In this document: positions 1 to 58,393 of the stretch, piece by piece | Layout of the letters: each line of letters opens with the position of its first letter | Position numbering within the stretch: position 1 is the first letter of the stretch | DNA from: Candidatus Moraniibacteriota bacterium | GTDB taxonomy: Bacteria > Patescibacteriota > Minisyncoccia > Moranbacterales > UBA1568 | Length of the DNA stretch: 64,000 bases | Direction of reading: 5' to 3' | Assembly (NCBI GenBank): GCA_052035095.1 | Contig: JBPOHW010000003.1 | Location: forward strand, 1,807 to 65,806 | The notes under the pieces: model-generated | The model's database searches: none | What the model saw: only the letters and a program-made list of their open reading frames with translations | Told to the model about the DNA's origin: nothing | Translations under genes and position numbers: made by a program

Positions 1-642
1 CACCGATTTTCCAAAAGCCTTTCCGATGATTATCGCCGCCGCTATCTTTCGTACACCGCCTATTTCACCAATGAACAGAAGGCACTCCTCTATACCGACG
101 AATTCAAGGCAAAAGTCTGGAACTATGATACGTATGACCGTATCGCCTCACGCTTCCTCGAGTCCGGATCCGCGAATCGCACCGAACAGGCGGTCTATGC
201 CGACTTCGTCACCTACCTCCCCGAAGCGTTAATGACCAAAGTTGACATCGCCACCATGGCGGTTGCCCTCGAAGGCCGTTCCCCGTTCCTTGACCACAAG
301 TTTCTTGAGCTCACGGCAAAAATTCCTTTTCACTTCAAGTTGAAGGGATTCAATAATAAGAAATATATCTTAAAGGAAGCGCTCCGCGGCATTATTCCGG
401 ACGAAGTGATGTTTCGTCCCAAAATGGGCTTCGGCGTCCCGATCGACGCGTGGTTTCGCGGCGAACTTCGCGAGTACGCTTCCAATAAACTTCTCAACGG
501 AAACATGGTGAGGCGAAATCTTTTCAAAAAGTCAGCCCTCGAAAAAATTCTCCATATCCACACCTCCACAACCATAAACTTCTCCCCTCACATCTGGGCA
601 CTCCTCACCCTCGAACTCTGGTTTGAGGAGTATTTTTCGTAA
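1..642 (+). CDS. asnB: Asparagine synthetase (glutamine-hydrolysing), C-terminal fragment; 5' end lies outside the window
   Basis: Frame 1 is open from nt 1 to the stop at 642; translation ...YADFVTYLPEALMTKVDIATMAVALEGRSPFLDHKFLEL...FRPKMGFGVPIDAWFRG matches the AsnB C-terminal synthetase domain. Confidence 0.75.
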   Translation, partial: HRFSKSLSDDYRRRYLSYTAYFTNEQKALLYTDEFKAKVWNYDTYDRIASRFLESGSANRTEQAVYADFVTYLPEALMTKVDIATMAVALEGRSPFLDHKFLELTAKIPFHFKLKGFNNKKYILKEALRGIIPDEVMFRPKMGFGVPIDAWFRGELREYASNKLLNGNMVRRNLFKKSALEKILHIHTSTTINFSPHIWALLTLELWFEEYFS

Positions 643-674
643 CGAGTATTCGCGCGAAATTTTCTCTCAACTCT

Positions 675-1583
675 ATGTTTTTTCTTTTCGCGACATATCA
701 AAAATTCCTCAAAAAAGGTAAAGATTATCTTTCGCTTATGCGGATTCATCATCTCATAAAAAATATACTCGTATTCGCTCCGCTTGTTTTTTCATTACAA
801 ATCACCCCTGAAAATATCTTGAGGTCTTTGATTGCTTTTTTTGCTTTTTCGTTTGTTGCAAGCTCAGTATATGTTCTTAATGACATTTTCGATGCGGATT
901 CCGACAGGAAACATACCCGAAAAAAAACTCGACCCCTCGCTGCCGGCACAATTCGTATACAGAATGCGCAAATATTTTGCACCATCCTCTTCTTACTCGG
1001 CATTTCAGTGGCACTCATTTTGCCATTATCTGTTTTCTCCATAATCGTCGGGTATTTCATCATAAATATCCTTTATTCCAGTTGGTTGAAAAAGATTTCC
1101 ATCATTGATGTTATGATTGTTGCAACCGGGTTTGTATTGAGAATTCTCGTCGGAGCATTGGCAATAGCCGTTTCTGTTTCACCCTGGATACTTTTGTGCA
1201 CATTTTTCGGAGCGCTTTTTGTCGCATTCGGAAAACGCAAAGGAGAAATAGACATCCTCAAAAATGACTCTCACTCGATAAGAAACGTCCTTTCATCTTA
1301 TCATCCCGATTTTCTCAACCAGCTTATCGGCACGACAGCCGCTATCACCATTATAAGCTACGCTCTCTATACCATAGATACTCATACCATAGACCGCCTC
1401 GGGACAAGAGACCTCGTGTATACCGTCCCATTTGTTGTTTTTGGAATATTCAGATATTTTCAAATTATATACACACAGTCGAGAGGCGACGATCCAACCA
1501 AAATATTTTCAACTGATCGCCCACTGCTTATTACCGTGATACTCTGGGCGGTAACATTTGCCGTCATAGTTCATATTCATTAA
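675..1583 (+). CDS. UbiA-family polyprenyl-phosphate phosphoribosyltransferase-like membrane protein (decaprenyl-phosphate 5-phosphoribosyltransferase-like)
   Basis: Polytopic membrane protein with UbiA aspartate-rich motif YVLNDIFDADSDRKHTRKKTRPLAAG, resembling the DPPR synthase clade (Rv3806c-type) of the UbiA superfamily. Confidence 0.65.
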   Translation: MFFLFATYQKFLKKGKDYLSLMRIHHLIKNILVFAPLVFSLQITPENILRSLIAFFAFSFVASSVYVLNDIFDADSDRKHTRKKTRPLAAGTIRIQNAQIFCTILFLLGISVALILPLSVFSIIVGYFIINILYSSWLKKISIIDVMIVATGFVLRILVGALAIAVSVSPWILLCTFFGALFVAFGKRKGEIDILKNDSHSIRNVLSSYHPDFLNQLIGTTAAITIISYALYTIDTHTIDRLGTRDLVYTVPFVVFGIFRYFQIIYTQSRGDDPTKIFSTDRPLLITVILWAVTFAVIVHIH

Positions 1584-1591
1584 AAAAACGT

Positions 1592-2254
1592 ATGTCATCT
1601 TTTTTTGAATTCCACTGCCACACGACTCCCTATTCGAAGGACGCCGGAGCAAAACTTGACGACATCATCAAAAGGTGTGAAAGGCGAAATATACGAAGCA
1701 TAGCGATTACCGATCACGACGAAATAGAAGGAGCGCTTCGATTAAAAAGTATAGCTCCTCCTTGGTTAAATGTCGTTCTTGGAGAAGAAATCAATACGTC
1801 TGCCGGAGAAATTATAGGCATATTCCTCAAAAAAAAGATTCCCCCCGGCCTTTCCCCGGAAGAAACACTTGCGGAGATAAAGAAGCAAGGAGGTATTTCC
1901 GTCGTCCCTCATCCATTCGACAGGTTTCGCTCAAAGGTTTTGAAAGCGTCCGAAATCAAAAAGAATGTTCATGCTATTGATATTATCGAAACTTTCAATG
2001 CGCGAAATCTATTGGAGGCAGATAATAAAAAGGCGGAGGAATTTGCGGAAATATACGAAAAACCCTGTATATGCGGGGGTGATGCTCACTTTATTGGAGA
2101 GTACGGGAGGACCGTCATCGCCAATATTGACTGTAGCGGACCGGAAACATTTCTCCGATCATTACATCGAGAAAATTTCAAACTTCGAAAATCTTCTCTT
2201 ACTTTCCATCTCCTGACAAAATACATGAAAATAGTCAGTTCTTTTCAAAAATAG
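1592..2254 (+). CDS. PHP-domain metal-dependent phosphoesterase
   Basis: N-terminal FEFHCHTTPYSKDAG...SIAITDHDEIEG is the PHP (polymerase/histidinol phosphatase) signature; gene sits 9 nt downstream of the UbiA gene. Confidence 0.7.
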   Translation: MSSFFEFHCHTTPYSKDAGAKLDDIIKRCERRNIRSIAITDHDEIEGALRLKSIAPPWLNVVLGEEINTSAGEIIGIFLKKKIPPGLSPEETLAEIKKQGGISVVPHPFDRFRSKVLKASEIKKNVHAIDIIETFNARNLLEADNKKAEEFAEIYEKPCICGGDAHFIGEYGRTVIANIDCSGPETFLRSLHRENFKLRKSSLTFHLLTKYMKIVSSFQK

Positions 2255-2256
2255 AT

Positions 2257-5199
2257 ATGCGAACAAAAATTTTTGCCACTACTCTCTTCTTTCTCATTTG
2301 TCTCTTTCCCGGAAGCAAGGCCGGATTTTTCGACGGTCTTCCGCCTTCAGCTCTGGAACTCATTATTACAGCCACAATACTCATAGGCATATTTGGAACG
2401 CCCTGGAACAAAAATGCCTTGATGCGAAAAGTAATCATCACCTCGCTTATTTTATTTCTCGCCGGTCAAACGATTTCAAAAACTTTTCTTCCTGTCGGAT
2501 GGAATGTCTGTATTCGTACATCTGCCGGCGCGCCACAAGGAAATTCAGCTTGTGAGCGATCAATCGAATTTCCACGAGGAAAAAAGAGTTTCATATATGA
2601 GACCATCGATTTCTCCAGAGAAAACTTTCCATTGTACTTTCTCAACGACACCTCTCGTTTCAATTTCTTGCGAGCAAACAATGAGCCCGATAGAGGTAAG
2701 CTTCCCTTTTCGATAGCCGCATCCACTTTTTTTCATGCCCAAGCAGATGACTCGCTTCTCATACAATCAGACAAAAATGTTCGCCTCGCAATAAACGATA
2801 CCACCATTCCTCTTGTCACCGACAAAGAAAATTTATTTCAAAAAATAGCACTCACACCGAATACGACCCATCATATTGAAATCATCTATGAGACAAATCG
2901 TAACAAGAAAAACATCCTCGTAGCCAAACTGCCTCGACCGTCATTTTTTACAATAGGAGATACCAAATCCATCCCACATACCGCATGGGCAACAATCTAC
3001 AAATTTGTAAACATATCCATTCTCATTCTTCTTGTTTTGACATTCGCTTGGGCGAAAAAACCGGATATACTCCTTCTCGGAAAATCACAAAAAATAACTC
3101 TCCTCATAGGGACACTTATTCTTATTTCTTTCTGGACACTTGTCACGCAAGATGTCATTGGATTCAAGGAAGCCCTTTTTCCGTTTTCAATATTCCTTAT
3201 TGGTTCTTCTCTTTTATTCGCTTCCTTGAAAAAATCATTAAAAAGAACACTTCTTCCGATCCTATTTCTCGCACTGTTTTTCAATTCATGCATATTTACA
3301 ACCACTCGAACATTTTCGGAAGAAGCGATTATTTTCGGCGGAGGGAATGATCCGATCGGACATGAATGGTATGCTCGCAGAGTATTTCTTTCGACAAGCC
3401 TTGAGGAATTCAGGGATTCCATTGGCTCTAGCGTCGACTACTATCAGCCGCTTCACCGCTATTTTCTCACTGTTTTCCACGTACTGGCCGGAGAGCCAAT
3501 GTGGGGACCATACGCACTTCAGACATTTCTTTTCAGCCTCGCCATTCTTTCACTCATTCTCGTTTTGTGGCAAACCAGCACTGTATCAGCGATTGTTTTT
3601 TCACTTGCCATGGCAGTCTTACTCACTTATGAGCCAACTTCTGCCTTGGAGGCCATCCTTTCTCCACTTCAACAAGCGATAGCGCTTCCTTTCATTATGT
3701 TTGCTTTCGCAATTCTTCTTTCTCTTCTGACACAAGAACAAGAAACGCGACAAGAAAAAAATATCCGGATGTTTTTTCTTTTGGGACTTTCCTTTGGGAC
3801 GGGTTCCATGATGCGAACCGATTGGCTTCCCGCCTTCTCGGGAATTCTTCTGGGAATATTCTTCATCCTTTTTCTTAATGGGAAATATCAGAAAAACATA
3901 TCGAACCAACCAACAGTAAAGCAAATCTTCTTCTCCAATATTATTTTCTACAAAAAAAGTCTTTTTCTTTTCTTCATCGGACTTTCTATTTTTCCATTCC
4001 TTATTGGTATGAAGAATTACATCTTCGCCGGACAGTTTTCATTCCTCCCTACAAGCGGTTTTGTCAATCTTCTCCCGGAAATCAAAGAAGCGGTCGACGA
4101 TAATATATCGTACTACGAAAATTCAACCGGAGTATTTCTTCAAGAAATTATACGCGGATTCTCCGGTCGATATGACGAACTCGCGGAAATTCTTCTCAAA
4201 AATGCGTATAAGGATATCATACGTCCGACCATTGTACGAATCGCTTTTTGGACTCTCTCGGTAATCGTCGTTCTTCTCTCCATTTTTCTTTTTTCGCATA
4301 TGCGCAAAACGCATTCGTTAGCATATATGAAACTCGGTAGCATCCTCTGTTCATTTCTCATACTAATTGGCATCGGATCATTTTTCGGACAACATAACGG
4401 TATTGCCATGATCGCCATATATGATATCCTTGTCGCGATCATTCTCGCTCTCAGCGCGCATATTATAGTGGATCGATTTGAAATCATGAAAAAACTCAAG
4501 CAAACCTATCGAAACAAATCAGACAGCCTTCAACAATATCTTCGCATAAACAGAGAGCTTTCCAAATTTCTCCTCTCGAGAATTCCACCTCATTCCGGAT
4601 TCTTGGATAGGATGAAAATAGCTTATCGCCCTTACATTTGTCCATTCTCCGATCTTCTCAATCTCCTTCCCAATCAATCTTCGATTTTCGACATCGGCTG
4701 TGGCAACGGCATGTTTCTCGCTCTCGTTTCAAAATTCAAGCTTCCAAAAGCAATAGGCGGTGTAGAGATATCAAAAAAACTCATCGATAACGCAATAACT
4801 ATTCTCGAGAATTCCAGCGTCGGAAAGAACGATCAGATCTCGATTCATACTTTTGACGGACAAACTATTCCTCATGAAATACGATCATATGAGTACATTT
4901 TCATGATTGATGTTCTCCATCACATCCCAAAGACAGCTCAAGTTGAATTTCTTAGAAAAGTTACTCATACTATGTCCGTCGGATCAAAGCTCATTCTAAA
5001 AGATATCGATGGAAGCCGTCCGTTTCTTTCAAAGTTCAACAAATTGCATGATCTCTTATTCTCGGGAGAGATCGGACACGAATTAAATCCGAAGTATGTC
5101 TTGCGAGAACTTATCCGTATGAATCTGAAGATTCACTTGATGCATAAAAAAAGAATATTTCTCTATCCTCACTACACCATCGTTTGCGAAAAAGTTTAA
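2257..5199 (+). CDS. Large polytopic membrane protein (putative GT-C-type glycosyltransferase) fused to a C-terminal class I SAM-dependent methyltransferase domain
   Basis: About 730 aa with many predicted TM helices and an early extracytoplasmic loop; C-terminal about 230 aa carries FDIGCGNGMFLAL...IFMIDVLHHIP...LILKDI methyltransferase motifs. Confidence 0.55.
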   Translation: MRTKIFATTLFFLICLFPGSKAGFFDGLPPSALELIITATILIGIFGTPWNKNALMRKVIITSLILFLAGQTISKTFLPVGWNVCIRTSAGAPQGNSACERSIEFPRGKKSFIYETIDFSRENFPLYFLNDTSRFNFLRANNEPDRGKLPFSIAASTFFHAQADDSLLIQSDKNVRLAINDTTIPLVTDKENLFQKIALTPNTTHHIEIIYETNRNKKNILVAKLPRPSFFTIGDTKSIPHTAWATIYKFVNISILILLVLTFAWAKKPDILLLGKSQKITLLIGTLILISFWTLVTQDVIGFKEALFPFSIFLIGSSLLFASLKKSLKRTLLPILFLALFFNSCIFTTTRTFSEEAIIFGGGNDPIGHEWYARRVFLSTSLEEFRDSIGSSVDYYQPLHRYFLTVFHVLAGEPMWGPYALQTFLFSLAILSLILVLWQTSTVSAIVFSLAMAVLLTYEPTSALEAILSPLQQAIALPFIMFAFAILLSLLTQEQETRQEKNIRMFFLLGLSFGTGSMMRTDWLPAFSGILLGIFFILFLNGKYQKNISNQPTVKQIFFSNIIFYKKSLFLFFIGLSIFPFLIGMKNYIFAGQFSFLPTSGFVNLLPEIKEAVDDNISYYENSTGVFLQEIIRGFSGRYDELAEILLKNAYKDIIRPTIVRIAFWTLSVIVVLLSIFLFSHMRKTHSLAYMKLGSILCSFLILIGIGSFFGQHNGIAMIAIYDILVAIILALSAHIIVDRFEIMKKLKQTYRNKSDSLQQYLRINRELSKFLLSRIPPHSGFLDRMKIAYRPYICPFSDLLNLLPNQSSIFDIGCGNGMFLALVSKFKLPKAIGGVEISKKLIDNAITILENSSVGKNDQISIHTFDGQTIPHEIRSYEYIFMIDVLHHIPKTAQVEFLRKVTHTMSVGSKLILKDIDGSRPFLSKFNKLHDLLFSGEIGHELNPKYVLRELIRMNLKIHLMHKKRIFLYPHYTIVCEKV

Positions 5200-5241
5200 T
5201 CCACGCCTTGTACGTACAAAGGAACCCAGAAAGAAACTCAT

Positions 5242-6333
5242 ATGCGAAAAAATCACATTTCTTTTCTCGTTGATCCCGAAACATTCGAGCCTCTTTCACC
5301 TTCACACTCCTTCGAAGAAAATCTTAATCATATCACTTCTGGAATTCTCTCAAGTGAAAAAAATTGGTACCCGATCATAAACAGTATTCCGCGGCTCCTT
5401 GTGGGAAAACTCAAAATAAATCTCTTGCAAACACATCAGGGCTTCTTCAAACGATTTCACGCGGCACTTCCAAAAAATATCTCGGAAGAATGGCAAAAAG
5501 CGATAGACGCCATACCCGATCTCAACCGCTTTTGGAAACACCAGAAAAAAACCGCCGAGAGTTTCGCCTATGAATGGAAATATATCTACAAAGAAAACGA
5601 TTACGAGAAACAAAACTTCTTTCATTTCCTCTCACCCTTTGTTACGGAAAAGGATTTGAAAGGAAAAAAAACGCTCGATATCGGGTGCGGATCGGGGCGC
5701 TTCACCAAATGGTCGGCACTCTCCGGTGCGGAGATCGCCTTCGGGAGCGACTTGGGCGAAACCGTCGAGGTCGCCTACGAAATGACCAAGGGTCTGCCGA
5801 ATGCCTGTATCGTACAGGCGGATATCTATCATATGCCCTTCAAGGATACGTTCGACCTCGCCTACTCGATCGGTGTGCTCCATCATCTTCCCAAACCCCA
5901 AGAAGGATTCTCACGTCTTCCGAAAGTTTTAAAATCTAGCGGGCAAATGCTCATCTGGGTCTACAACCGCCGCCACAACGCCCGCGCCATCTATGTATAC
6001 GAACCACTCCGATCGATTCTCAAGAAACTTCCGAAGCCACTCCTCTTCAAGCTCTGCTATCTCCCCGGCGGCATTGTTCACAGCATCAACCTCTTCGGAA
6101 CGTTTCTGAAAAAAGTCGGGCTCGAGAAATTATCAGGAAAACTCCCCTTCTCGTACTATGCAAATTTCCCTTTTAATATGAAATTGAATGATGCTTTCGA
6201 CGTTCTTGCGACGCCAAAGAGCAACTACTACTATCGGGAAGCAGTCGAACAATGGTTCCGAAGCGCCAAGCTGAAAGATATCCGGGCATACGAACACCCG
6301 GAAGCGGGAATTACCTGTATCGGAACGCGATAA
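5242..6333 (+). CDS. Class I SAM-dependent methyltransferase
   Basis: LDIGCGSGRFTKW...IVQADIYHMPF...SIGVLHHLP motifs I/II/III; N-terminal Trm112-like FLVDPETFEPL segment. Confidence 0.7.
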   Translation: MRKNHISFLVDPETFEPLSPSHSFEENLNHITSGILSSEKNWYPIINSIPRLLVGKLKINLLQTHQGFFKRFHAALPKNISEEWQKAIDAIPDLNRFWKHQKKTAESFAYEWKYIYKENDYEKQNFFHFLSPFVTEKDLKGKKTLDIGCGSGRFTKWSALSGAEIAFGSDLGETVEVAYEMTKGLPNACIVQADIYHMPFKDTFDLAYSIGVLHHLPKPQEGFSRLPKVLKSSGQMLIWVYNRRHNARAIYVYEPLRSILKKLPKPLLFKLCYLPGGIVHSINLFGTFLKKVGLEKLSGKLPFSYYANFPFNMKLNDAFDVLATPKSNYYYREAVEQWFRSAKLKDIRAYEHPEAGITCIGTR

Positions 6334-6341
6334 CGTGCTCT

Positions 6342-7487
6342 ATGTCAAAGAAGAGAATACTCCACATCATTCAGTCACTCGGAAACGGCGGATGCGAAAA
6401 TATGCTGCTCCGCACCCTCCCCCTCCTTGCGGACGAATTCGAACACCACATCATCACCCTCCGCGAATTTGGCGAGCTCGCGCCACGATTTATTGAGAAA
6501 GGAATCTCCGTTACGACGATTCATCAAATCGGCTTTTTCGACATTTCGGGCTACCGGAGGCTCCTTCTGGAAACAAACCGGTTCAATCCCGACACCGTCA
6601 TCACGTACCTCTTCCATGCCGACATGATCGGACGATTTTTCTTGCAAAAGAAAATTTCTATCCCCATCATTCCCTTCCTTCGCACCACCTACAATCACCC
6701 GAGATATTTCATTGCGAGACTCTTCGAAAAAATTACTAAGCACCGTGTCAAACAGTACCTCGCCAATTCCGAAGCGGTCAAAGATTTCTACGTCAAAAAA
6801 ATCGGCGTCCAACCCGAGAAAATCACCGTCATCCCGAACGGCATCGACACCGAGTATTTCGACAGCATCCTCCCCAACCCAAATCTCCGCGCATCACCTG
6901 GTATCGCTCCTCACGACTTCGTCATTATCTGTGTCGCCAATTTTCATATCAACAAAGGTCACCGATACCTCCTCGAAGCCTTCGAGTCGCTCTTCCCGAA
7001 ATTCCGGCACGCAAAACTCCTCCTCATCGGCGATGGTTCCAAGCGAAAAAATCTTGAGCGACAAATCAACGCTTACCAAGCGAAACATTCCATTCTCTTC
7101 CTCGGACGCCGTACCGATGTCCCGCAACTCCTCAAGATTTCCGATTGTTTTGTTCTTCCCACACTCTTCGAAGGCATGAGTAATGCCCTGATTGAAGCGA
7201 TGGCCACCGGTCTCCCTGTTATCACAACCGATATTCCGGAAAATCGCGAGCTTATCGAACACGAAAAGACTGGCATTTTTGTCCAACCAAAAGATTCACA
7301 TGCGCTCACCAAGGCAATCGAACAACTCCTTGATAGTCCGGAAAAATGTGAAACCCTTGGAAAGAACGCTAAGTACGACATTCGAAGACGGTTTGACATA
7401 AATACTTCCATTTCAAAATTCAACAATTTTCTCAACTCTTTTATCGTACATAGAATGAAAAATGAGAAACCTTACAAAAAAAATTAA
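6342..7487 (+). CDS. Glycosyltransferase family 4 (GT-B)
   Basis: MSKKRILHIIQSLGNGG N-terminus and C-terminal FVLPTLFEGMSNALIEAMATGLPVITTD GT4 signature; start chosen at the internal ATG (ORF extends upstream to 6252 overlapping the previous gene). Confidence 0.8.
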   Translation: MSKKRILHIIQSLGNGGCENMLLRTLPLLADEFEHHIITLREFGELAPRFIEKGISVTTIHQIGFFDISGYRRLLLETNRFNPDTVITYLFHADMIGRFFLQKKISIPIIPFLRTTYNHPRYFIARLFEKITKHRVKQYLANSEAVKDFYVKKIGVQPEKITVIPNGIDTEYFDSILPNPNLRASPGIAPHDFVIICVANFHINKGHRYLLEAFESLFPKFRHAKLLLIGDGSKRKNLERQINAYQAKHSILFLGRRTDVPQLLKISDCFVLPTLFEGMSNALIEAMATGLPVITTDIPENRELIEHEKTGIFVQPKDSHALTKAIEQLLDSPEKCETLGKNAKYDIRRRFDINTSISKFNNFLNSFIVHRMKNEKPYKKN

Positions 7488-7506
7488 AATCAGTTTCTTT
7501 TTCCAT

Positions 7507-8565
7507 ATGAAAGACAAACCATCAATAAAGATAGTTCTCGAAAAAAGATCTGACGCAGTAGGTATCTACAATAATAAAATCTTATCTTACTTAAGAAAAA
7601 AACCAAACGTAGAATTTATTCTCCTTAATAATAAGCGTTTCAAAAAAAATATTCTCAATCGTATTTTTGAATTCTTCAACACACTAAAGATTATTTTTAC
7701 GATTGACCATAATGACATCGTTTTATTTACCGATCCCCTGCCATTCAATTTTTTGGCAAACTTATTTATAAAAAACAAAAAATTCGTCATTTTTTTTCAC
7801 TACGAACAAGATCCATCTTATTATAGATTTCTTCCTGCTATTTCTCTAAGCTCTGTCTTAAAAAAATCTGATGGAATCATATGCAGCTCTGCTTATTCAC
7901 TCTCCCAACTCCAACTCCTCAACATTGATCAAAGAAAATGCACCATCATCCATTGCGGAGTGGATCATAAAATATTTACTCCACCACTAACTAGAGAAAC
8001 TCTTTATCCTTTCGAGTATATTCTCAGCATAGGATCCGAAGAAAAGAGAAAAAACATGGAGAATATTCTTAAAACTCTCAAGATACTAAAAAGATATTTT
8101 CCTCACTTAAAACTCTTAAAAGTTGGGAAAGCAAGCTCAAGTAACCGAAAAAACACACTCTTTTGGGTAAAGAAGCTCAATCTAGACAATGATGTCGTTT
8201 TCACTGATTTCTTAGAAGAAAAGTCTCTACCAAAAATATATTCCAATTCAAGACTTCTTTTGTTTCCGTCCCTCCTCGAGGGCTTCGGTCTCCCGATTAT
8301 AGAAGCCATGGCATGTGGATGTCCGGTTGTAACATCCAATAGAAATCCCATGAAAGAGCTTGTTGGACCGGAACAACAGACCGTAGATCCACTCAATCCG
8401 AGTGACATCGCGGATACGTGTAAAAAAATTCTTTCGGATAAAAACTATCGAGATACCCTTATTCAAATCGGTATCAAGAGATCTGAAAAATTTGACTGGA
8501 AAAAAACAGCAAACGAAGTGTACTCATATTTAATAAAAAAGGATAAAAAGACAAAAGAACAATAA
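7507..8565 (+). CDS. Glycosyltransferase family 4 (GT-B)
   Basis: C-terminal LLLFPSLLEGFGLPIIEAMACGCPVVTSN motif; markedly AT-rich coding sequence; start ambiguous (7462 or 7507). Confidence 0.7.
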   Translation: MKDKPSIKIVLEKRSDAVGIYNNKILSYLRKKPNVEFILLNNKRFKKNILNRIFEFFNTLKIIFTIDHNDIVLFTDPLPFNFLANLFIKNKKFVIFFHYEQDPSYYRFLPAISLSSVLKKSDGIICSSAYSLSQLQLLNIDQRKCTIIHCGVDHKIFTPPLTRETLYPFEYILSIGSEEKRKNMENILKTLKILKRYFPHLKLLKVGKASSSNRKNTLFWVKKLNLDNDVVFTDFLEEKSLPKIYSNSRLLLFPSLLEGFGLPIIEAMACGCPVVTSNRNPMKELVGPEQQTVDPLNPSDIADTCKKILSDKNYRDTLIQIGIKRSEKFDWKKTANEVYSYLIKKDKKTKEQ

Positions 8566-8573
8566 ACGCCTTT

Positions 8574-9311
8574 TCACTTCTTGGCTACAGCCAAAAGACT
8601 TGAAGTGTATATATCTTGCTTATCGTACCCGAGAATTTGAATAAAAATTTTGAAGAAAAAAAGCGTAATTTTTCTCAATATATTCAACCAAAAATTCCCA
8701 ACTCCATAAAAGTTCTTCATCTCCACCCTTTTGAATCCCGCAACAACAAGTACTTGTCGCAAACTCAAGTTCGTAAAACCGATCTCATGAGTTATGTCTC
8801 CGTATCTGCCCGCGGTAGAATTAAAATAAGCAGCGCAATTTGGAACAACAATAATAATCGTGCCACCATCAACCAATCTATTTCTTACCTCTTCAAGAAA
8901 TCCAAAAAGATTTTCTTTTTTAATATGTTCCAATACATGTGACAAATATATGACATCAAACTTTTCTTTTTCGGAAAGAAGGTATTTATAAATATCAGCC
9001 TGAACAAACTTGTAAGATCTGAATAATTTTTTACACACGACTATTTCTTCTGTTGATATATCAACACCAGTAACATTCTTGTATCCGTGTGCTTGTAGAA
9101 AAAAAAGAAAACTTCCATAGCCACATCCCAGATCCAAAATAGCCCTTTCTTTGCTGATTTTTGTTTTAAACAGACGTCCCAGGTTATATTCCAACGGAAT
9201 TTTATTTTTCTTAAGCAGTGTCACTACCTGATTTTCATCGGAAAAATCCGTTTTTTCACAATTCGAGTAATGATTTGTAAGGTAGTTGTCGAATATTTTT
9301 CTATTGTCCAT
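8574..9311 (-). CDS. Class I SAM-dependent methyltransferase
   Basis: ILDLGCGYGSFLFFL...FDVIYLSHVLEHI...GGTIIIVVPN motifs. Confidence 0.7.
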   Translation of the reverse strand: MDNRKIFDNYLTNHYSNCEKTDFSDENQVVTLLKKNKIPLEYNLGRLFKTKISKERAILDLGCGYGSFLFFLQAHGYKNVTGVDISTEEIVVCKKLFRSYKFVQADIYKYLLSEKEKFDVIYLSHVLEHIKKENLFGFLEEVRNRLVDGGTIIIVVPNCAAYFNSTAGRYGDITHEIGFTNLSLRQVLVVAGFKRVEMKNFYGVGNFWLNILRKITLFFFKIFIQILGYDKQDIYTSSLLAVAKK

Positions 9312-10158
9312 CAGCGTTTGTTATCGGCTTATTTCCTTTCACATAGATTTTATTCAGACCAAAAAATAAATATACCAAGTAGAGAAATTGCTCGAGAACA
9401 CGCCTGTACCCTCGAGCATTAAACCGAATGTGATATTTTATAAGAGCAATGAGATTTATTTTGAACATCAAATATACCTGTCGTTTTAGCATAAAAACAC
9501 TCACAGATCCGGCATGGAGTCTTTTTTTGTACAATACTTCCGGCATATTTTCAAAGCGAACGCCCTGTGAAAACCACCGGAACCAGAGCTCGACATCTTC
9601 AGCGTGGTCATAGTTCGAGTCGTAATATCCATAATCGGCAAAGAGACTTCGTTTCATCATGCACGTGGGATTGTGTACTGGCGGCTTGCCATCATGAATG
9701 TCACTTGAATCCGCAGAAACCACGGCTTTACATTGTTCAGGCGAAGCATTGAGGAATAGACAATAAGAAGATCCCAGAATGTCCGTATCGGGGTTTTTGC
9801 GAAAATACCTCACTTGCTTTTCAAATCTGTCAGGTGGGCAAATATCATCAGAGTCGACTATTACTATAAAATTGCCTTTAGCCACTTTAATAGCCTTATT
9901 TCTCGCTTCAGATTGTCCCAAATTTACAGCATTTTTTATGTATATAATCCTTTTGTCTTTTTTAGCGAATTCTTGAATGATACTTTCACTATTATCATAA
10001 GAACCATCATTGATAATGATAAACTCAAATCGAGCATATGTTTGCGACAAAACACTCTCGATTGATTCATAAAGGTATTTCCCATTATTATAAGTGGCCA
10101 TCACGACGGAAAGTAACGGATCCGATGTCGCTTTTTCTTTATTATTCTCGGAATTCAT
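9301..10158 (-). CDS. Glycosyltransferase family 2 (GT-A)
   Basis: LLSVVMATYNNGKYLYESIESVLSQTY...FEFIIINDGSYD...DSDD motifs. Confidence 0.8.
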   Translation of the reverse strand: MNSENNKEKATSDPLLSVVMATYNNGKYLYESIESVLSQTYARFEFIIINDGSYDNSESIIQEFAKKDKRIIYIKNAVNLGQSEARNKAIKVAKGNFIVIVDSDDICPPDRFEKQVRYFRKNPDTDILGSSYCLFLNASPEQCKAVVSADSSDIHDGKPPVHNPTCMMKRSLFADYGYYDSNYDHAEDVELWFRWFSQGVRFENMPEVLYKKRLHAGSVSVFMLKRQVYLMFKINLIALIKYHIRFNARGYRRVLEQFLYLVYLFFGLNKIYVKGNKPITNADGQ

Positions 10159-10166
10159 AACTTGTT

Positions 10167-11144
10167 TTATTTTTCCGAAATCCTTTTCATGTCCGCATCA
10201 ACCATCATGGAAACCAATTCATCGAATTTAACTCTCGGTTTCCATCCAAGTATTTTTTTTGCTTTATTGTTCGCTCCATGTAGCGAAAACAACTCAGCCG
10301 GCCTCTTAAATCGCGGATCCAATTTCACGTATCGCTTCCAATCGCGAATACCAACATGCTTAAAAGCAAGCTCGAGGAAATCTCGAATCGAGTGGGTTTC
10401 TCCGGTTGACACTATATAGTTATCCGGCTTACTTTGCTGGAGCATGAGCCACATAGCCTCAACATAATCACCTGCAAATCCCCAATCGCGCTTACTCTCA
10501 AGATTCCCCAATCGTATTTCTTTTGCCAATCCCAACTTTATTCTTGCCACCCCATCGGTTATTTTCCGCGTCACAAACTCCATTCCCCGAATGGGAGATT
10601 CGTGATTGAATAATATACCGTTTGTGCAATACATACCATAACTCTCTTTGAAGTTAACCGTCATCCAATAGGCATACAATTTGGAAATAGCATAGGGGCT
10701 TCTCGGATGAAATGGCGTTTCCTCCGTTTGTAAACCATCGCTATGGCTATTGCCAAACATCTCGCTAGTTGACGCTTGGTAAAATTTCGTGGTCGGCGAA
10801 AAATATTTGATGGCATTTAACAAATGAAGGACGCCCAAGGCGTTAATTTCGGTGGTAATTTTTGATTGATCCCATGATACTCCAACGAAAGATTGTGCTG
10901 CCAAATTGTAGACCTCATCCGGATGAAACGTTTTAATAAGATTCATGATCGACGCTTCATCCGTCATATCTCCGGATATAAAAGCAATCTTTTCCGTTAC
11001 ACCCAGATAATCGGTATTGCAAAAATTCGGGTTAGCATAACGCCGTATGAGCCCGAAAACCTCATAATCCTTCTCCAAAAGCAACTTGGCGAGATATGGA
11101 CCATCCTGACCCAAAATACCAGTTATAAGCGCTGTTTTTTTCAT
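10167..11144 (-). CDS. gmd: GDP-mannose 4,6-dehydratase
   Basis: MKKTALITGILGQDGPYLAKLLLEKDYEVFGLIRR..., short-chain dehydrogenase fold with the Gmd-typical N-terminus and NHESPIRG motif; ORF extends to 11183 but MKKTALITG is the likely start. Confidence 0.85.
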   Translation of the reverse strand: MKKTALITGILGQDGPYLAKLLLEKDYEVFGLIRRYANPNFCNTDYLGVTEKIAFISGDMTDEASIMNLIKTFHPDEVYNLAAQSFVGVSWDQSKITTEINALGVLHLLNAIKYFSPTTKFYQASTSEMFGNSHSDGLQTEETPFHPRSPYAISKLYAYWMTVNFKESYGMYCTNGILFNHESPIRGMEFVTRKITDGVARIKLGLAKEIRLGNLESKRDWGFAGDYVEAMWLMLQQSKPDNYIVSTGETHSIRDFLELAFKHVGIRDWKRYVKLDPRFKRPAELFSLHGANNKAKKILGWKPRVKFDELVSMMVDADMKRISEK

Positions 11145-11186
11145 ATTCCTGAAAAAATTATAAATTCTTTTTTTGCAATCCACTTC

Positions 11187-12326
11187 TTATAGACCACTTT
11201 CTATATATACCCGGAAAACACACTCTTCGAGAGCAAACACCGTATGGGGAATATTCGCGGCGACCCATGCCGACTGACCATCATTCAGGTGAAACGTTTC
11301 CTTTTCCGATATCAACATGAGCGAACCCTTACTAATATATATATGCTTCATTGGCAGTTTTTTGATTCGAGCGACATCAGGGCAGTACTGATACTTACTG
11401 CTGTGACCTTTGGCAAGAATGTACTCCTTTCCTTCAGTCGATTTCGGAGCAGCGCTTCGTCCGACACGGAAATATTTTGGATACAAACCCCGTTTTATCA
11501 AAGAAGAATTGCTCAATCTATTATCATCGTCCCAGTTTGCAAACAGCTCTTCTTTAAGTCCACCCACAACGAAAGGGAGCAATTCCGAATCACAGTCAAA
11601 AAGTGACTTCTCCAAATTAAACGGGGTTGCGGGAGAATAGATAACAAATCGAATGCCTAAACTTGAAACTATTTTATTTAGAAAAAACCAAAAAGCTCTG
11701 TTTCTCGGATACATGAAAAAACAATTTTCCATAAACACTTGCAAAAGAAACGGCACTTTTACGAGAATTTTCCTTTCAATCTCCAAAAGTTTCTGAAAAT
11801 ACCGTTTCGTGCAAATGCCTGCCAATGAATACGGATAGAAGTGATTACTATTTTTCTTCAAAAAACTGGAATTTTTCCCGTCAAACTGAAAAAAGAAGAA
11901 GTGTTTCGAATAATCAGGGTACAGTCCCTCGGCGCTCCCAACGCTTAAACCGACATTGAAAAAAGAATACGTAAAACAATCGATTTTCGAATCCATCATA
12001 TCTTGAATGACGTCCCTGAAATGATCGAGAGATTTCAAAAGAAAATGATCCTCAAGAAAAACATAAACATACTCATATTTTGAATTCTCAAACATCTTTC
12101 TTGTGCTTTTCGCCCAATCATTCTCATTAAGACCAGAGAAAAAAATGCAGTTTCTTTCAACATTGTCAAAAGTCTCTTGAATATATTTCAGGACATCTCC
12201 GCGGTATTTTCCCCGAATATTGATGAGCCAGTTATCGGAAATGCCATACACCCGAGAGAAGGTTTCTTTGAACAACTCGAGCTTCGATTTCGAATGTATG
12301 AAAACATTACAGAGGGCGGTTATCAT
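11187..12326 (-). CDS. Hypothetical protein with C-terminal cupin-like domain (possible sugar isomerase/epimerase)
   Basis: C-terminal ...FHLNDGQSAWVAANIPHTVFALEECVFRVYIESGL resembles a cupin beta-barrel; N-terminal 250 aa unrecognised; sits between gmd and the C-methyltransferase. Confidence 0.35.
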   Translation of the reverse strand: MITALCNVFIHSKSKLELFKETFSRVYGISDNWLINIRGKYRGDVLKYIQETFDNVERNCIFFSGLNENDWAKSTRKMFENSKYEYVYVFLEDHFLLKSLDHFRDVIQDMMDSKIDCFTYSFFNVGLSVGSAEGLYPDYSKHFFFFQFDGKNSSFLKKNSNHFYPYSLAGICTKRYFQKLLEIERKILVKVPFLLQVFMENCFFMYPRNRAFWFFLNKIVSSLGIRFVIYSPATPFNLEKSLFDCDSELLPFVVGGLKEELFANWDDDNRLSNSSLIKRGLYPKYFRVGRSAAPKSTEGKEYILAKGHSSKYQYCPDVARIKKLPMKHIYISKGSLMLISEKETFHLNDGQSAWVAANIPHTVFALEECVFRVYIESGL

Positions 12327-12346
12327 ACGGGAAACTATTTAATTAG

Positions 12347-13495
12347 CTATTCGAAAACAACTATCTTCGAATTGATTTTCTTGAGCTGTTTAAATATCTC
12401 ATCTCGGTAAATGCCAACCTTGAGGACAACGCCGACCACACCCTTCCCCTCCAACACTTCCGGACTTTGAACCATAAAGGGCGTCCCGTAGAGGCGCTTC
12501 CCTTGTTTGAGCGAAGAATTGTCCAACAGGGAAACTATTTTTTGTTTATTCAAACCAAATTCGAAAAGATACTGGGCAAAAATGTGAGCGCCAAAAACAT
12601 ATACCTCGCCATCAAAACCGGCAATTTTCTCATTCAAATCCTTCACCATATTCTGATGGTACCGAATAAAATCATCGAATATTTTTTTGTACTCATGATA
12701 TTGATTCTCAAAGATCGCAGCTCCCGATTGTTTAGCTTTCTCCGCGACATAGAAAATACTGTGATCCTTGTAAAAATACTTATCCTTTATGACAAACCCA
12801 TACTTAACAAAGAGATAATCAACAAAATAGTCCGTCAAGAACATCGTGTGCTCGAAATTTATGGCGTTCGTATACTTTCTCTCGAGCCACAGTTTCAAGT
12901 TTGGATAGGCGCACACAATCTTTCCTCCGACAGGAAGAAATTTCGCTATCGAAGAAACAAACGCGTTCGGATCATAGGCGTGTTCCATCACCTGCGAGAA
13001 AACTACCGTATCTATATTTCCCTCATACTCGAAATTTTCGTCAAAAAAAGCGCGGGCAATCTTAATCCGATCACTTCCCAAGTGAAGTGGATTTGGTTCA
13101 ACAAGTGTCCACGATGTCCCTTCAGTACTGCCAATAAAAATATCAGCGAGTTTCCCGGCGCCACCCCCAATTTCAAGAATATCTTTCGATGGTTGCCTTT
13201 GTACATACTCGGCAAAATCATGATAGTACTCTTCCCATGTTGGACCCGTGCCATCTACATGCTGTTCTTGATAAAGAATATCGAGTGGAATAAGTTTTTC
13301 GAGCTGAATGACGCCGGATTCCGGACATATTGCCCAGCTCATATCGGCTTTGACATCTTTTTCAGAGCTATGTTCCACGCACCCGAAAAACACCGGAAAG
13401 TCTTTAAAAGTGTGGAGATGCTTGAGATTTTCTTTTCCGGTGATAACACTTTTTTTTCTAAAAACATATTCCATACGCTTTTTTGGCTTGATCAT
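12347..13495 (-). CDS. NDP-hexose C-methyltransferase-like enzyme (zinc-ribbon + SAM methyltransferase + C-methyltransferase C-terminal domain architecture)
   Basis: ILEIGGGAGKLADIF SAM motif, TylCIII/TcaB9-like domain order with an N-terminal putative zinc-binding region and a long C-terminal domain. Confidence 0.6.
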   Translation of the reverse strand: MIKPKKRMEYVFRKKSVITGKENLKHLHTFKDFPVFFGCVEHSSEKDVKADMSWAICPESGVIQLEKLIPLDILYQEQHVDGTGPTWEEYYHDFAEYVQRQPSKDILEIGGGAGKLADIFIGSTEGTSWTLVEPNPLHLGSDRIKIARAFFDENFEYEGNIDTVVFSQVMEHAYDPNAFVSSIAKFLPVGGKIVCAYPNLKLWLERKYTNAINFEHTMFLTDYFVDYLFVKYGFVIKDKYFYKDHSIFYVAEKAKQSGAAIFENQYHEYKKIFDDFIRYHQNMVKDLNEKIAGFDGEVYVFGAHIFAQYLFEFGLNKQKIVSLLDNSSLKQGKRLYGTPFMVQSPEVLEGKGVVGVVLKVGIYRDEIFKQLKKINSKIVVFE

Positions 13496-14484
13496 CGTTT
13501 TATAAAACTCTTCACAAAAGCTTCAATAATTCCTTCGAACATTGAAATTAAGCGAATTTTTACAATATCTTTCGAATGCACATTATTTTTTCTGATATGC
13601 CTCTGTCCAAAAACGACGAGTCGACTCCCTGCTTGACGATCAAAATGACTCAAATATTCGTCACTTGAAACAATTTTCACATCAGTTTTTCCACATGAAC
13701 GCAAACGCCTTACAAATTCCCGAGTCGTCCATCCTCCATATGGCGCTGAATGAGACTCGAAATTGGTAATAAAGTATCCATACTTTGACGGAACTATCAC
13801 CGAATTAAAATAAGCATCAAGCAAAGAACCTCTCATTTCCGAAAATGCCCCGTTTGAAATCACAAGACCACCACTCCCCTGTCTAGGCGCCAAGGAGTTA
13901 ACACTTTCAAAGCGAGCCGAGTACCCAAAATGCAATAAAAAGCGTTTGATTATTCCATGAGAAGAGGGGAGGTCGTAAATATGCCATTTCTTGCCAAGAT
14001 CTGAATTAAAAAGAGTTACCGCTATATCATTGAAAATTTTACACTCACCACCGTACCCCGCGCCAATATCATGTATTTCTGTCTCACCGTTCAATATATT
14101 CTTTCCAAAAAGAGATAAGCAGTTGAAAGCATTGTTTGCATATCGAATAGTGGTCGGGGAAAGACTGTACCCTGCTTCATAAGGAGAATGGGCGTTAAAG
14201 TCAATCATATGTAAAGGCAACCCTACGGTATCGGAAGCTTGAATCAAAGGTAACGCCTTAAGAAAATCGGCTTCTTTTAATAAGCGTTTCAAATTCCATA
14301 ACCCGCACGATCGCGGAGATCCCTCGATAACTCGTCGAAACGGCTTCGAAGAACGAAAGATGCGATAAAACTCATCATTATTTGCTGCATCAGCACATGC
14401 CCGAACCCAATCGGATTCTTTTGCAGATACAGCATCATTCATATCAATTCGACAAATACTCGACCTCAAGTTATTCGTTTCCAT
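13492..14484 (-). CDS. Hypothetical protein, possible SAM-dependent (sugar O-) methyltransferase
   Basis: EIHDIGAGYGGECKIFNDI resembles SAM-binding motif I; otherwise unrecognised; start overlaps the upstream gene by 4 nt. Confidence 0.35.
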   Translation of the reverse strand: METNNLRSSICRIDMNDAVSAKESDWVRACADAANNDEFYRIFRSSKPFRRVIEGSPRSCGLWNLKRLLKEADFLKALPLIQASDTVGLPLHMIDFNAHSPYEAGYSLSPTTIRYANNAFNCLSLFGKNILNGETEIHDIGAGYGGECKIFNDIAVTLFNSDLGKKWHIYDLPSSHGIIKRFLLHFGYSARFESVNSLAPRQGSGGLVISNGAFSEMRGSLLDAYFNSVIVPSKYGYFITNFESHSAPYGGWTTREFVRRLRSCGKTDVKIVSSDEYLSHFDRQAGSRLVVFGQRHIRKNNVHSKDIVKIRLISMFEGIIEAFVKSFIKR

Positions 14485-14530
14485 ACGGTTAAAACAAAGT
14501 GGAACAGAAAATGCAAATATGCGATTTATC

Positions 14531-15061
14531 TCATTTTTTCTTCCATGCTCCCGAGCCTTCTTTCAAGACAAGTGAGTAGATATCGAACGGTTCGTTGAAA
14601 AACTTTTCCAGTATATGCAAACACGCCTCAGCAACCGCCCCATCCCCACCTCGCAGGTTCGTGATAAAATCCGCCTTCTCTTTCGTTGCATAAAAAGCAT
14701 TGGCTGGAGCAATACTATAAGCAACGTGCTTAAAAACAAGTGGATCGAATATGCCGTCACCCATATAAATCGTTTCCGCCGGATCGAACCGATCGCGAAT
14801 CCACTCTATCCGCTCAAAAGTACTCACGAGGTCCAGTGGAAGCTTCATATCGTCGGCTATTCGTCGCTTCGTAATGGCAAAGCCGTTTTTATCACCGGTA
14901 ACCGCATGAATCATGAGTTTTCCCCGAAGAAGAGAAAGGGCGTCGTTATCTTCCGGACCGAACTTCTTCATGACTTTTCCATCGACGGTATAATAAAACG
15001 TACCGTCCGTGAAAACACCATCGACATCAAGAATGAAATTTTTTATTGTTTTCTTTTTCAT
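14531..15061 (-). CDS. HAD-IIIA phosphatase, KdsC-like (sugar-phosphate phosphatase)
   Basis: ILDVDGVFTDG...MGDGIFDPL...GGDGAVAEACLHIL matches the 3-deoxy-manno-octulosonate-8-phosphatase family. Confidence 0.7.
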   Translation of the reverse strand: MKKKTIKNFILDVDGVFTDGTFYYTVDGKVMKKFGPEDNDALSLLRGKLMIHAVTGDKNGFAITKRRIADDMKLPLDLVSTFERIEWIRDRFDPAETIYMGDGIFDPLVFKHVAYSIAPANAFYATKEKADFITNLRGGDGAVAEACLHILEKFFNEPFDIYSLVLKEGSGAWKKK

Positions 15062-15071
15062 ATCAACTGTT

Positions 15072-16646: not shown

Positions 16647-16649
16647 AAT

Positions 16650-17366
16650 TTAGACAGCTCTCATTTTTTGAATAACCGAAACTGACCGATCAATGTTTCC
16701 TCGAAACTCTCTGATTTTTTCATCAAGCGGTTTTTCTTTTTTGTAGATAACCGACGTGCCGCATACCAACACAGTTGCCCCGGCAGCTATCATGAGCGGA
16801 CCGCTTTCCGGAGTCACCCCGCCGTCAATTTCGATTTCGATATCACTCTTTCCCAATGCATCCAGCTTCTTTCGGAGATCCATAATCTTCTGCACGGAAA
16901 AAGGAACTAGCTTGTGTCCGACAATTCCCGGATTGATAGCCATGAGCATTACAACGTCGATGTCATCCAATATGTAGTCAAGCACAGAGAGTGGAGTCGC
17001 CAGGTTAAGCGCCACCCCTGGTTTTACTCCCTCGTTTTTTATAAGAGAAACCGCGCGATGGAGATGATTGGTAGCCTCCGCATGTACAACAACATACGTT
17101 GCCCCAGCCTTTGCAAACTCCGTGACATACTTCTCTGGAGAACGCGTCATCATGTGCACATCAATAGGAAGACTTGTCACTGATCGAATATCCCGGAGCA
17201 GTTCAGGGTAAAGACCGTATCGAGGAACAAAGTCCCCATCCATGACATCAAAATGAATCGAATCAATACCACCCTTTTCAAGAAGACGAATTTCCTCCGC
17301 AAAAGTCATAGCATTCCCACAGATGAATGACGCTGATAACTTGTAGCTTCTTGTCATGGCTTCCAT
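16650..17366 (-). CDS. rpe: Ribulose-phosphate 3-epimerase family
   Basis: KLSASFICGN...IHFDVMDGDFVP...MAINPGIVG...IDGGV motifs. Confidence 0.8.
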   Translation of the reverse strand: MEAMTRSYKLSASFICGNAMTFAEEIRLLEKGGIDSIHFDVMDGDFVPRYGLYPELLRDIRSVTSLPIDVHMMTRSPEKYVTEFAKAGATYVVVHAEATNHLHRAVSLIKNEGVKPGVALNLATPLSVLDYILDDIDVVMLMAINPGIVGHKLVPFSVQKIMDLRKKLDALGKSDIEIEIDGGVTPESGPLMIAAGATVLVCGTSVIYKKEKPLDEKIREFRGNIDRSVSVIQKMRAV

Positions 17367-17372
17367 AGTTTT

Positions 17373-17900: not shown

Positions 17901-17982
17901 TATCACCTGTATTCTTCTCTTTATCATAGTAATTACGGCATTACAACAAGAAAAATTCATCCAGAAAACATCCTCTACTAGA

Positions 17983-19329: not shown

Positions 19330-19476
19330 AAATTTTTTTCAACTTTCCAGTGAAACCACAAAATAGGCTTTCGTAATAATTCGAGCCCCAAGCTTACCAT
19401 GAGTAAGATAAAATTGTCAGCAGTGGTGCTTTTGAGGAAAAGTGCCTTTTTGAAGCATTTGTAGTATACTCTCTCT

Positions 19477-58360: not shown

Positions 58361-58393
58361 ACATTTCACTCTCCAGTGCTACCATTTCCCCAT

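Follow-up and report, generated by a model that had tools for sequence, protein, structure and literature searches.

In Corynebacterineae, the UbiA-family enzyme Rv3806c makes decaprenyl-phospho-ribose-5-phosphate, the PAP2-family protein Rv3807c removes the 5-phosphate, and glycosyltransferases of fold class C (GT-C; Emb/Aft) transfer the lipid-linked pentose. In Citrobacter youngae O1/O2, ORF15, which combines an HAD-PRP phosphatase with a polyprenyl-phosphate 5-phosphoribosyltransferase (PPPRS), makes undecaprenyl-phosphate-linked ribofuranose from phosphoribosyl pyrophosphate (PRPP); the small flippase ORF14 exports the donor, and the GT-C enzyme ORF12 (GT136, with a carbohydrate-binding module, CBM) transfers alpha-ribofuranose directly (Kelly et al., PNAS 2024, PMC11127046). 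Epimerases are optional in such systems, with none needed for ribose, and a survey in the same paper lists candidate systems in Gram-negative bacteria, Gram-positive bacteria and one phage (PMC11127046). Here we describe three genes in a 64-kb stretch of DNA from a Candidatus Moraniibacteriota bacterium (contig JBPOHW010000003.1; this whole stretch is called the window), which likely serve extracytoplasmic pentofuranosylation, both by making the donor and by transferring its sugar.

ORF1 (675-1583, 302 amino acids, aa), ORF2 (1592-2254, 220 aa) and ORF3 (2257-5199, 980 aa) are all on the + strand, with spacers of 8 nt between ORF1 and ORF2 and 2 nt between ORF2 and ORF3. An earlier description made from the letters alone, here called the sequence-only reading, had pointed to three co-directional, tightly packed genes at this site, and their coordinates agree with it. 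The searches covered the 64-kb window of a genome of about 1 Mb, and all scans of window open reading frames (ORFs) were made with Pfam on ORFs of at least 180 aa, a few ORFs overlapping assigned genes excepted.

ORF1 matches the Pfam UbiA model with an E-value of 7e-27 and contains no other domain, including no HAD domain. It scores above the cut-offs of the NCBIfam equivalogs for decaprenyl-phosphate phosphoribosyltransferase (DPPRS), NF008977 (281.9 bits, cut-off 234) and NF008978 (218.5 bits, cut-off 207), and the other UbiA subfamily models stay below theirs (haem O synthase 61 bits, UbiA 55 bits, MqnP 30 bits). Across the haem O synthase, UbiA, MqnP/MenA-type, digeranylgeranylglyceryl phosphate (DGGGP) synthase and chlorophyll synthase models the scores are 17-67 bits, far under the cut-offs, and an assignment as a MenA/UbiA/CyoE prenyltransferase was rejected because those models fall so far short while the DPPRS model is exceeded. 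Among solved structures, M. tuberculosis Rv3806c (8j8j) matches best, with an E-value of 4e-32 across aa 22-297 compared with 1e-11 for DGGGP synthase. The phosphoribosyltransferase identity given by the sequence-only reading is thus borne out, and no grouping with menaquinone or haem prenyltransferases was found.

The sequence motifs of ORF1 agree with this assignment. The NDIFDADSDRKH motif at aa 69-80 carries the NDxxDxxxD Mg/PRPP motif of cytoplasmic loop 1 (N69-D70-x-x-D73-x-x-x-D77, aa 69-77), and the GKRxxE motif, that is the K-R-x-x-E of loop IV, is present as G186-K-R-K-G-E191. The NDxxDxxxD and K-R-x-x-E residues have been mutated in Citrobacter ORF15 (PMC11127046) and in Rv3806c (PMC10994848). 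We mapped the contact residues listed in the Rv3806c structure paper (PMC10994848) to ORF1 through a HMMER alignment. Of the 12 PRPP/Mg contacts, nine are identical and two are conservatively changed. The 5'-phosphate contacts K28 and Y70 of Rv3806c correspond to K29 and Y66 of ORF1, and Y157 to F153, a Y-to-F variant also seen in mycobacteria; the Mg/ribose contact N73 corresponds to N69, the Mg contact D77 to D73 and the ribose contact Q135 to N131. Among the pyrophosphate contacts, R22, K87, R90, Y138 and K143 correspond to R23, K83, R86, Y134 and K139, and K208 to N204. The phosphoribose contacts (K28, Y70, Q135, Y157) are not conserved among other UbiA enzymes (PMC10994848), and their retention in ORF1 is therefore diagnostic. 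Judged by its sequence, ORF1 is a member of the phosphoribosyltransferase (DPPRS/PPPRS) clade of the UbiA superfamily. NCBI names its homologues in Berkelbacteria, Ignavibacteriales, Eisenbacteria, Thermoanaerobaculia and Tumebacillus decaprenyl-phosphate phosphoribosyltransferase, and in two related loci (L001 and L090) the operon includes a PRPP synthetase gene.

ORF2 is a soluble PHP-family metal-dependent phosphoesterase, scoring above the Pfam cut-offs for both PHP (PF02811, 35.6 bits, cut-off 26.4) and PHP_C (PF13263, 29.4 bits, cut-off 21.3). H8, H10, D17, D41-H42, E65/E66, H107 and D164-x-H166 are invariant across six orthologues. Since the metal-ligand pattern of PHP enzymes is intact, ORF2 is probably an active enzyme. 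A role as the histidinol-phosphatase HisJ or as the PHP domain of PolX/Pol III was rejected on NCBIfam scores far below cut-off (HisJ TIGR01856 17.3 bits, cut-off 90.2; Pol III alpha models 14-22 bits, cut-offs at least 430; PolC also far under its cut-off), and a CpsB-like tyrosine phosphatase was rejected since no CpsB model matched. The top NCBIfam matches are weak and mixed, comprising CehA/McbA, RNase RNM and 3',5'-bisphosphate phosphatase.

Two groups of PHP phosphoesterases acting on ribose phosphates offer a comparison, namely phosphoribosyl 1,2-cyclic phosphate diphosphodiesterase (NF041661) and 3',5'-nucleoside bisphosphate phosphatase (NF041577). They share with ORF2 the PHP fold and the HxH/DH/E/H/DxH ligands, and they act on phosphorylated ribose, as ORF2 is proposed to do; however, ORF2 scores weakly against both models (19-26 bits, cut-offs 400-500), and its proposed substrate is lipid-linked. 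Neither a PAP2 nor an HAD-PRP phosphatase lies within the module, and the Pfam scans of the window gave no PAP2 match. From these sequence features and the gene context, ORF2 is probably the 5-phosphatase of polyprenyl-phospho-ribose-5-phosphate. A literature search of incomplete coverage found no PHP domain linked to polyprenyl phosphoribose, and PHP is not mentioned in PMC11127046.

ORF3 is a fusion of N-terminal transmembrane helices, a PA14-like domain, a GT-C core and a C-terminal S-adenosylmethionine (SAM)-dependent methyltransferase. Pfam recognizes only the methyltransferase, with Methyltransf_23, _12, _25, _11 and _31 above cut-off; no GT-C model matches at E <= 0.01, and the PMT_2 (PF13231) threshold is not reached. 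Word-index searches returned 8-9 matches, and the wider family became visible only by exhaustive profile search, in which the N-terminal 740 aa retrieved 747 proteins at E <= 1e-3. Among 50 distant relatives sampled from these, PMT_2 is matched by 41 and PA14 by 16. An hhalign comparison of the close ORF3 group with PMT_2-bearing relatives gave a probability of 100% and an E-value of 9e-55.

An AlphaFold2 model of aa 1-760, built on a 43-sequence alignment, reached a predicted local distance difference test score (pLDDT) of 91.1 and a predicted template modelling score (pTM) of 0.93; an earlier full-length model with 8 sequences had been set aside at a pLDDT of 54.8. In the model the core (aa 241-760; 2977-4536, + strand) has a GT-C fold, and the lower-ranked fold matches (AglB, PIG-M, ALG3, STT3B and AftB) are GT-C enzymes without exception. 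A conserved outer loop of the core (aa 349-415) carries GGxD365xxxH369E370 and Y395-Y-Q-P-L; R520, N587 and N604 are also invariant. The invariant D365 (motif GGxDxxxHE) sits behind helix 326-348, in the first outer loop of the core. Because the helix order of the model puts this loop on the same side as PA14, both are predicted to face outward, and by the same helix count the C-terminal methyltransferase is predicted to be cytoplasmic. The sequence-only reading had described ORF3 as a polytopic GT-C-like protein, a description that the predicted fold upholds; it had passed over the PA14-like domain and the methyltransferase.

The PA14-like domain (about aa 80-225; 2494-2931, + strand) is a beta-sandwich of the PA14 type that probably binds the carbohydrate of the acceptor glycan. 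The methyltransferase module (aa 765-980; 4549-5199, + strand) is of class I, with the motif I sequence DIGCGNG. In the word-index set of 8 ORF3 homologues the methyltransferase is fused in five and absent in three. Its sequence is 64% identical to the fused domain in locus L089 and 51-53% identical to free-standing methyltransferases of 215-218 aa beside the GT-C gene in L003, L004 and L090; the fusion thus joins what other genomes encode as two proteins. Its weak matches in the PDB are small-molecule and sugar O-methyltransferases (E about 1e-4). Compared with ArnT and other PMT_2-type GT-Cs (PF13231), ORF3 stays below the family threshold and has extra N-terminal helices, the PA14 insertion and the methyltransferase fusion.

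We examined gene neighborhoods in three ways, starting from UbiA/GT-C homologues, from PHP in GTDB genomes and from GT-C in metagenomes. UbiA and PHP genes both stand beside the ORF3-type GT-C gene in all 10 loci with context, and a methyltransferase is fused or adjacent to the GT-C in nine of these. The gene orders vary: UbiA, PHP, PRPP synthetase and GT-C in L001; UbiA, PHP, methyltransferase and GT-C in L003; UbiA, PHP, methyltransferase, PRPP synthetase and GT-C in L090; and UbiA, GT-C, methyltransferase and PHP in L091. The series runs GtrA, UbiA, PHP, GT-C, methyltransferase, 363-aa-type methyltransferase and GT4 in L004, and AsnB, GtrA, UbiA, PHP and a GT-C-methyltransferase fusion in L089. 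In three metagenomic loci (L092, L093 and L095) the GT-C is only 28% identical to ORF3, yet UbiA, PHP and a methyltransferase of about 213 aa adjoin it in differing orders and orientations. L005 and L006 have UbiA, LPG_synthase_TM, a short-chain dehydrogenase/reductase (SDR) epimerase and PHP, and in the Berkelbacteria locus L006 (8869-10518) the PHP domain is fused to the membrane LPG_synthase_TM domain.

The PHP protein tells the same story from its own side. Among the GTDB matches listed, all PHP homologues above 230 bits are encoded within 3 kb of a UbiA gene (the window, L001, L003-L007 and L041). The PHP identity given by the sequence-only reading holds, with no grouping with HisJ or PolX, and within the orthologous clade the gene keeps its place beside UbiA in all close relatives.

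Beyond these close relatives, most of the listed GTDB matches to the PHP profile are distant homologues from Chloroflexota and Solirubrobacterales that lack a UbiA gene. Such distant PHP genes are fused to GT4 or stand beside LPG_synthase_TM (23 of 86 PHP loci among the matches listed). In Solirubrobacterales/Thermoleophilia the PHP subfamily of ORF2 is fused to a GT4 glycosyltransferase (L009, 8783-10687), and in Chloroflexota it stands beside a gene of LPG_synthase_TM, the MprF flippase type; L025 (10687-11766) is among the examples of fused or adjacent PHP loci. These partnerships, mostly without UbiA nearby, suggest a broader role of the subfamily as a phosphatase of membrane-bound sugar phosphates. 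Several clusters of apparently conserved neighbors near the distant PHP genes have no Pfam match; high-GC DNA probably gave rise to them as spurious ORFs. A different arrangement is found in the Firmicute Tumebacillus (L088, 8001-11045), where UbiA, a 119-aa EamA/SMR-like protein, PMT_2 and DUF212 make up a compact pentofuranose-type module with DUF212 as its only candidate phosphatase gene.

The surroundings of the module were also searched for enzymes that might modify or export the lipid-linked sugar. No DprE1/DprE2 candidate was found, as the scanned window ORFs gave no match to FAD_binding_4, ALO or adh_short, in agreement with the sequence-only reading. The only epimerase-type match among these ORFs is a strong one to GDP-mannose 4,6-dehydratase. 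Seed searches of the window with GtrA, SMR, LPG_synthase_TM, DUF212, PRPP synthetase and SDR epimerase returned no homologue, and no small ORF with at least three predicted transmembrane helices lies in positions 1-21,000. GtrA stands upstream of UbiA in L004 and, as a 149-aa GtrA-type gene, between AsnB and UbiA in L089; in the window that gap is a 32-bp spacer (643-674).

We then propose a mechanistic model, which builds on the observed family memberships, fold, residue conservation and gene linkage and in which the substrates, the order of the steps, the identity of the sugar and the target of methylation are putative. At the cytoplasmic face, ORF1 would move ribose-5-phosphate from PRPP onto polyprenyl phosphate to give polyprenyl-phospho-ribofuranose-5-phosphate, from which soluble ORF2 would strip the 5-phosphate. 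The lipid-linked sugar would then have to reach the outer face, for which relatives carry GtrA and the window carries none. The last step would fall to the GT-C core of ORF3, which would transfer the pentofuranose onto a surface glycan that the surrounding gene cluster produces, with the PA14 domain holding the acceptor glycan. The methyltransferase on the cytoplasmic end of the GT-C would be a fourth conserved component, with the lipid-linked ribose, prior to its export, as the favored target and the acceptor as the other candidate. It is tempting to speculate about a four-component system of PPPRS, PHP 5-phosphatase, SAM methyltransferase and PA14-GT-C, in which the methyltransferase O-methylates the polyprenyl-phosphate-linked ribofuranose once PHP frees the 5-hydroxyl, so that glycans of bacteria of the candidate phyla radiation (CPR) gain a methylated pentofuranose. 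With no flippase gene for the donor in the window, this GT-C lineage might also help to move its own donor across the membrane. We regard these extensions as possible and rather doubtful.

Several observations weigh against pentofuranosylation by this module, or against parts of it. The distant PHP homologues (33-40% identity) are not beside UbiA in about 78 of 80 GTDB loci among the matches listed, and PHP alone is therefore no marker of the pathway. In ORF1, the Rv3806c contact K208 is replaced by asparagine. ORF3 reaches no Pfam GT-C model, its assignment coming from transitive homology and predicted structure, and a candidate flippase of GtrA, SMR or LPG_synthase_TM type is missing from the window. 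The constant methyltransferase partner implies that the transferred sugar may differ from plain ribose. The sequence-only reading had proposed direct use of unmodified lipid-linked ribose; the lack of DprE1/DprE2 in the window is in keeping with this, while the methyltransferase fusion makes plain ribose less certain. The epimerase search covered the window, which makes up all of its contig but some 15 kb. To our knowledge, neither the PHP clade nor the GT-C lineage seen here has any biochemically characterized member.

One alternative keeps the module as described and has the lipid-linked ribose converted before transfer, to arabinose via DprE1/E2 or to xylose via an SDR epimerase, by enzymes encoded outside the window. 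SDR epimerases do stand beside the module in L005, L006, L003, L091 and L095, only 64 kb of the genome is visible for such genes, and epimerases are optional add-ons in known systems (PMC11127046). We nevertheless consider conversion unlikely, as the dehydratase is the sole epimerase-type match among the scanned ORFs, the epimerase seeds from related loci match nothing in the window, and the nearest loci (L004, L089 and L090) likewise have no adjacent epimerase. It is also conceivable that PHP is not the 5-phosphatase and acts as a CpsB-like tyrosine phosphatase regulating polysaccharide export, as a nucleotide bisphosphate phosphatase or as a general sugar-phosphate phosphatase, with the 5-phosphate removed otherwise or kept. 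PHP enzymes have many substrates, the NCBIfam matches of ORF2 are indistinct, its subfamily pairs with GT4 and LPG_synthase_TM where UbiA is absent, and an HAD hydrolase is also encoded in the glycan gene cluster (14531-15091). The persistence of the PHP-UbiA linkage in 10 of 10 loci despite shuffled gene orders argues against this, as do the failure of any CpsB model to match and the lack of a tyrosine-kinase (CpsC/CpsD-type) Pfam match among the scanned window ORFs; moreover, the HAD gene is part of a separate four-gene sugar-nucleotide set conserved in L003. Such a role for PHP is thus distinctly unlikely.

The link between donor and transferase can be questioned as well. The GT-C of ORF3 could use another lipid-linked donor, such as a polyprenyl-phospho-hexose made by a GT2 of the locus, and the product of UbiA and PHP could feed the GT-C at 19477-20928 or serve another purpose. 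The cluster indeed holds a second GT-C (PMT_2) together with GT2, and UbiA is paired with ordinary PMT_2 proteins in Berkelbacteria L006 and Tumebacillus L088. Such a division of labor is very unlikely, given that the PA14-GT-C gene is a neighbor of UbiA and PHP in all 10 loci, including those with a rearranged order and an identity of 28%, and that its start lies 2 nt behind the PHP stop in the window. That ORF1 might be an ordinary UbiA-type prenyltransferase of quinone, haem or lipid synthesis in a coincidental neighborhood recalls the JGI annotation of many of its homologues as 4-hydroxybenzoate polyprenyltransferase. This is hardly credible when the haem O synthase, UbiA, MenA-type and DGGGP models give 17-67 bits and the DPPRS model 282 bits, above cut-off, and when ORF1 has the phosphoribose-specific residues that other UbiA enzymes do not conserve (PMC10994848). 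We therefore retain donor synthesis by ORF1 and ORF2 and transfer by ORF3 as the likely function of the three genes.

The module stands at the start of a glycan biosynthesis gene cluster of about 20 kb (window positions 1-20,000). GC content is about 0.40 over this part (range 0.36-0.44) and about 0.52 over the remaining, housekeeping part (20,000-64,000; 0.46-0.55), and the low value suggests that the cluster was horizontally acquired or is differently constrained. Its content comprises two GT4 genes and one GT2 gene, four methyltransferases, a GDP-mannose 4,6-dehydratase homologue, a four-gene sugar-activation set, a Wzx-type flippase and a second GT-C (PMT_2). Upstream of ORF1, the 3' end of an asparagine-synthase-type (AsnB-like) amidotransferase gene (232-642, + strand; Pfam Asn_synthase E 6e-35) is a conserved neighbor given for context only; in L089 the module is likewise preceded by an AsnB-like gene, with whose C-terminus it shares 78% identity. 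Downstream, a second methyltransferase of 363 aa (5242-6333, + strand; Methyltransf_11 E 1e-15) belongs to the conserved block and is probably outside the core module; L004 has a methyltransferase of equal length in the corresponding place, with 70% identity. The 363-aa methyltransferase is followed by a GT4 glycosyltransferase (6339-7487, + strand; Glycos_transf_1 E 6e-42), also context from the glycan locus. The listed GT4 ORF (6252-7487) shares 82 nt with the 3' end of this methyltransferase gene; since the alignment with the L004 GT4 (56% identity) begins only at aa 30, the true start is probably near 6339.

Further features of the window were noted. On the - strand at 14531-17960, an HAD hydrolase (186 aa, 14531-15091), a 524-aa NTP_transferase-like protein, a ribulose-phosphate 3-epimerase and a SIS isomerase (195 aa) form the four-gene set, which is found again in L003 (10925-15138) and lies near the strong GDP-mannose 4,6-dehydratase homologue at 10167-11183. 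This looks like a pathway to a nucleotide-activated heptose or ketose, possibly a 6-deoxy sugar. The second GT-C (PMT/PMT_2, 483 aa, 19477-20928) lies beside the Wzx-type flippase (17983-19329); with it, the locus has two extracytoplasmic lipid-sugar transferases. A LexA-like repressor (37226-37876) falls into a cluster formed at 90% identity, whose 45 members include proteins from two Candidatus Moranbacteria genomes (about 1.1 Mb), which agrees with the CPR-like host suggested by the sequence-only reading. The valyl-tRNA synthetase (1010 aa, 58376-61408) has a weak internal ASCH-domain match at aa 488-584 (E 2e-4).

CPR bacteria, or Patescibacteria, are ultrasmall episymbionts whose surface chemistry is almost unknown. 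From this locus we predict that PRPP is used by some of them to make a surface glycan that carries pentofuranose and is heavily methylated. If this is true, PHP would be a further structural family that dephosphorylates polyprenyl-phospho-ribose-5-phosphate, beside the PAP2 and HAD types, and an uncharacterized GT-C lineage with a PA14 module would be added. A concrete hypothesis, testable in vitro, comes from the constant methyltransferase partner, which is fused in some cases, and methylation of a lipid-linked monosaccharide donor, if true, would be a new reaction type. The general picture is unchanged, since the pathway type was already known in 2024 to be widespread outside Actinobacteria.

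The comparison with the mycobacterial decaprenyl-phospho-arabinose pathway shows a homologous first step with Mg, PRPP and phosphoribose contacts kept, and the proposed 5-dephosphorylation and GT-C transfer from a polyprenyl-phospho-pentose are likewise shared. In contrast, the neighbor of the synthase here is PHP and not PAP2, and DprE1/DprE2 were not found among the scanned window ORFs. The sequence-only reading had held that a polyprenyl-phospho-pentose system in such a genome would be new biology. This view is not supported, because the pathway type outside Actinobacteria, including direct ribofuranosyl transfer, is already established by the work on Citrobacter and its wide survey (PMC11127046), and NCBI already names CPR homologues accordingly. 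Our locus resembles the Citrobacter system in its UbiA-family PPPRS with PRPP as the predicted substrate, its putative dedicated 5-phosphatase, its GT-C with an additional, probably carbohydrate-binding domain and its place in a glycan biosynthesis locus. The two differ in the phosphatase, here a PHP protein encoded on its own and there an N-terminal HAD domain, and in the binding module, which is a PA14 domain ahead of the core and not a C-terminal CBM. Further, the GT-C here is of a PA14-bearing lineage related to PMT_2/ArnT-type proteins, which may or may not belong to GT136, the family of ORF12; a SAM methyltransferase is fused or adjacent to it, the window has no small flippase gene, and the host is a CPR bacterium. 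The features that appear to be new are thus a phosphatase of the PHP family, a GT-C lineage with PA14, a methyltransferase as its constant partner and a host from the CPR.

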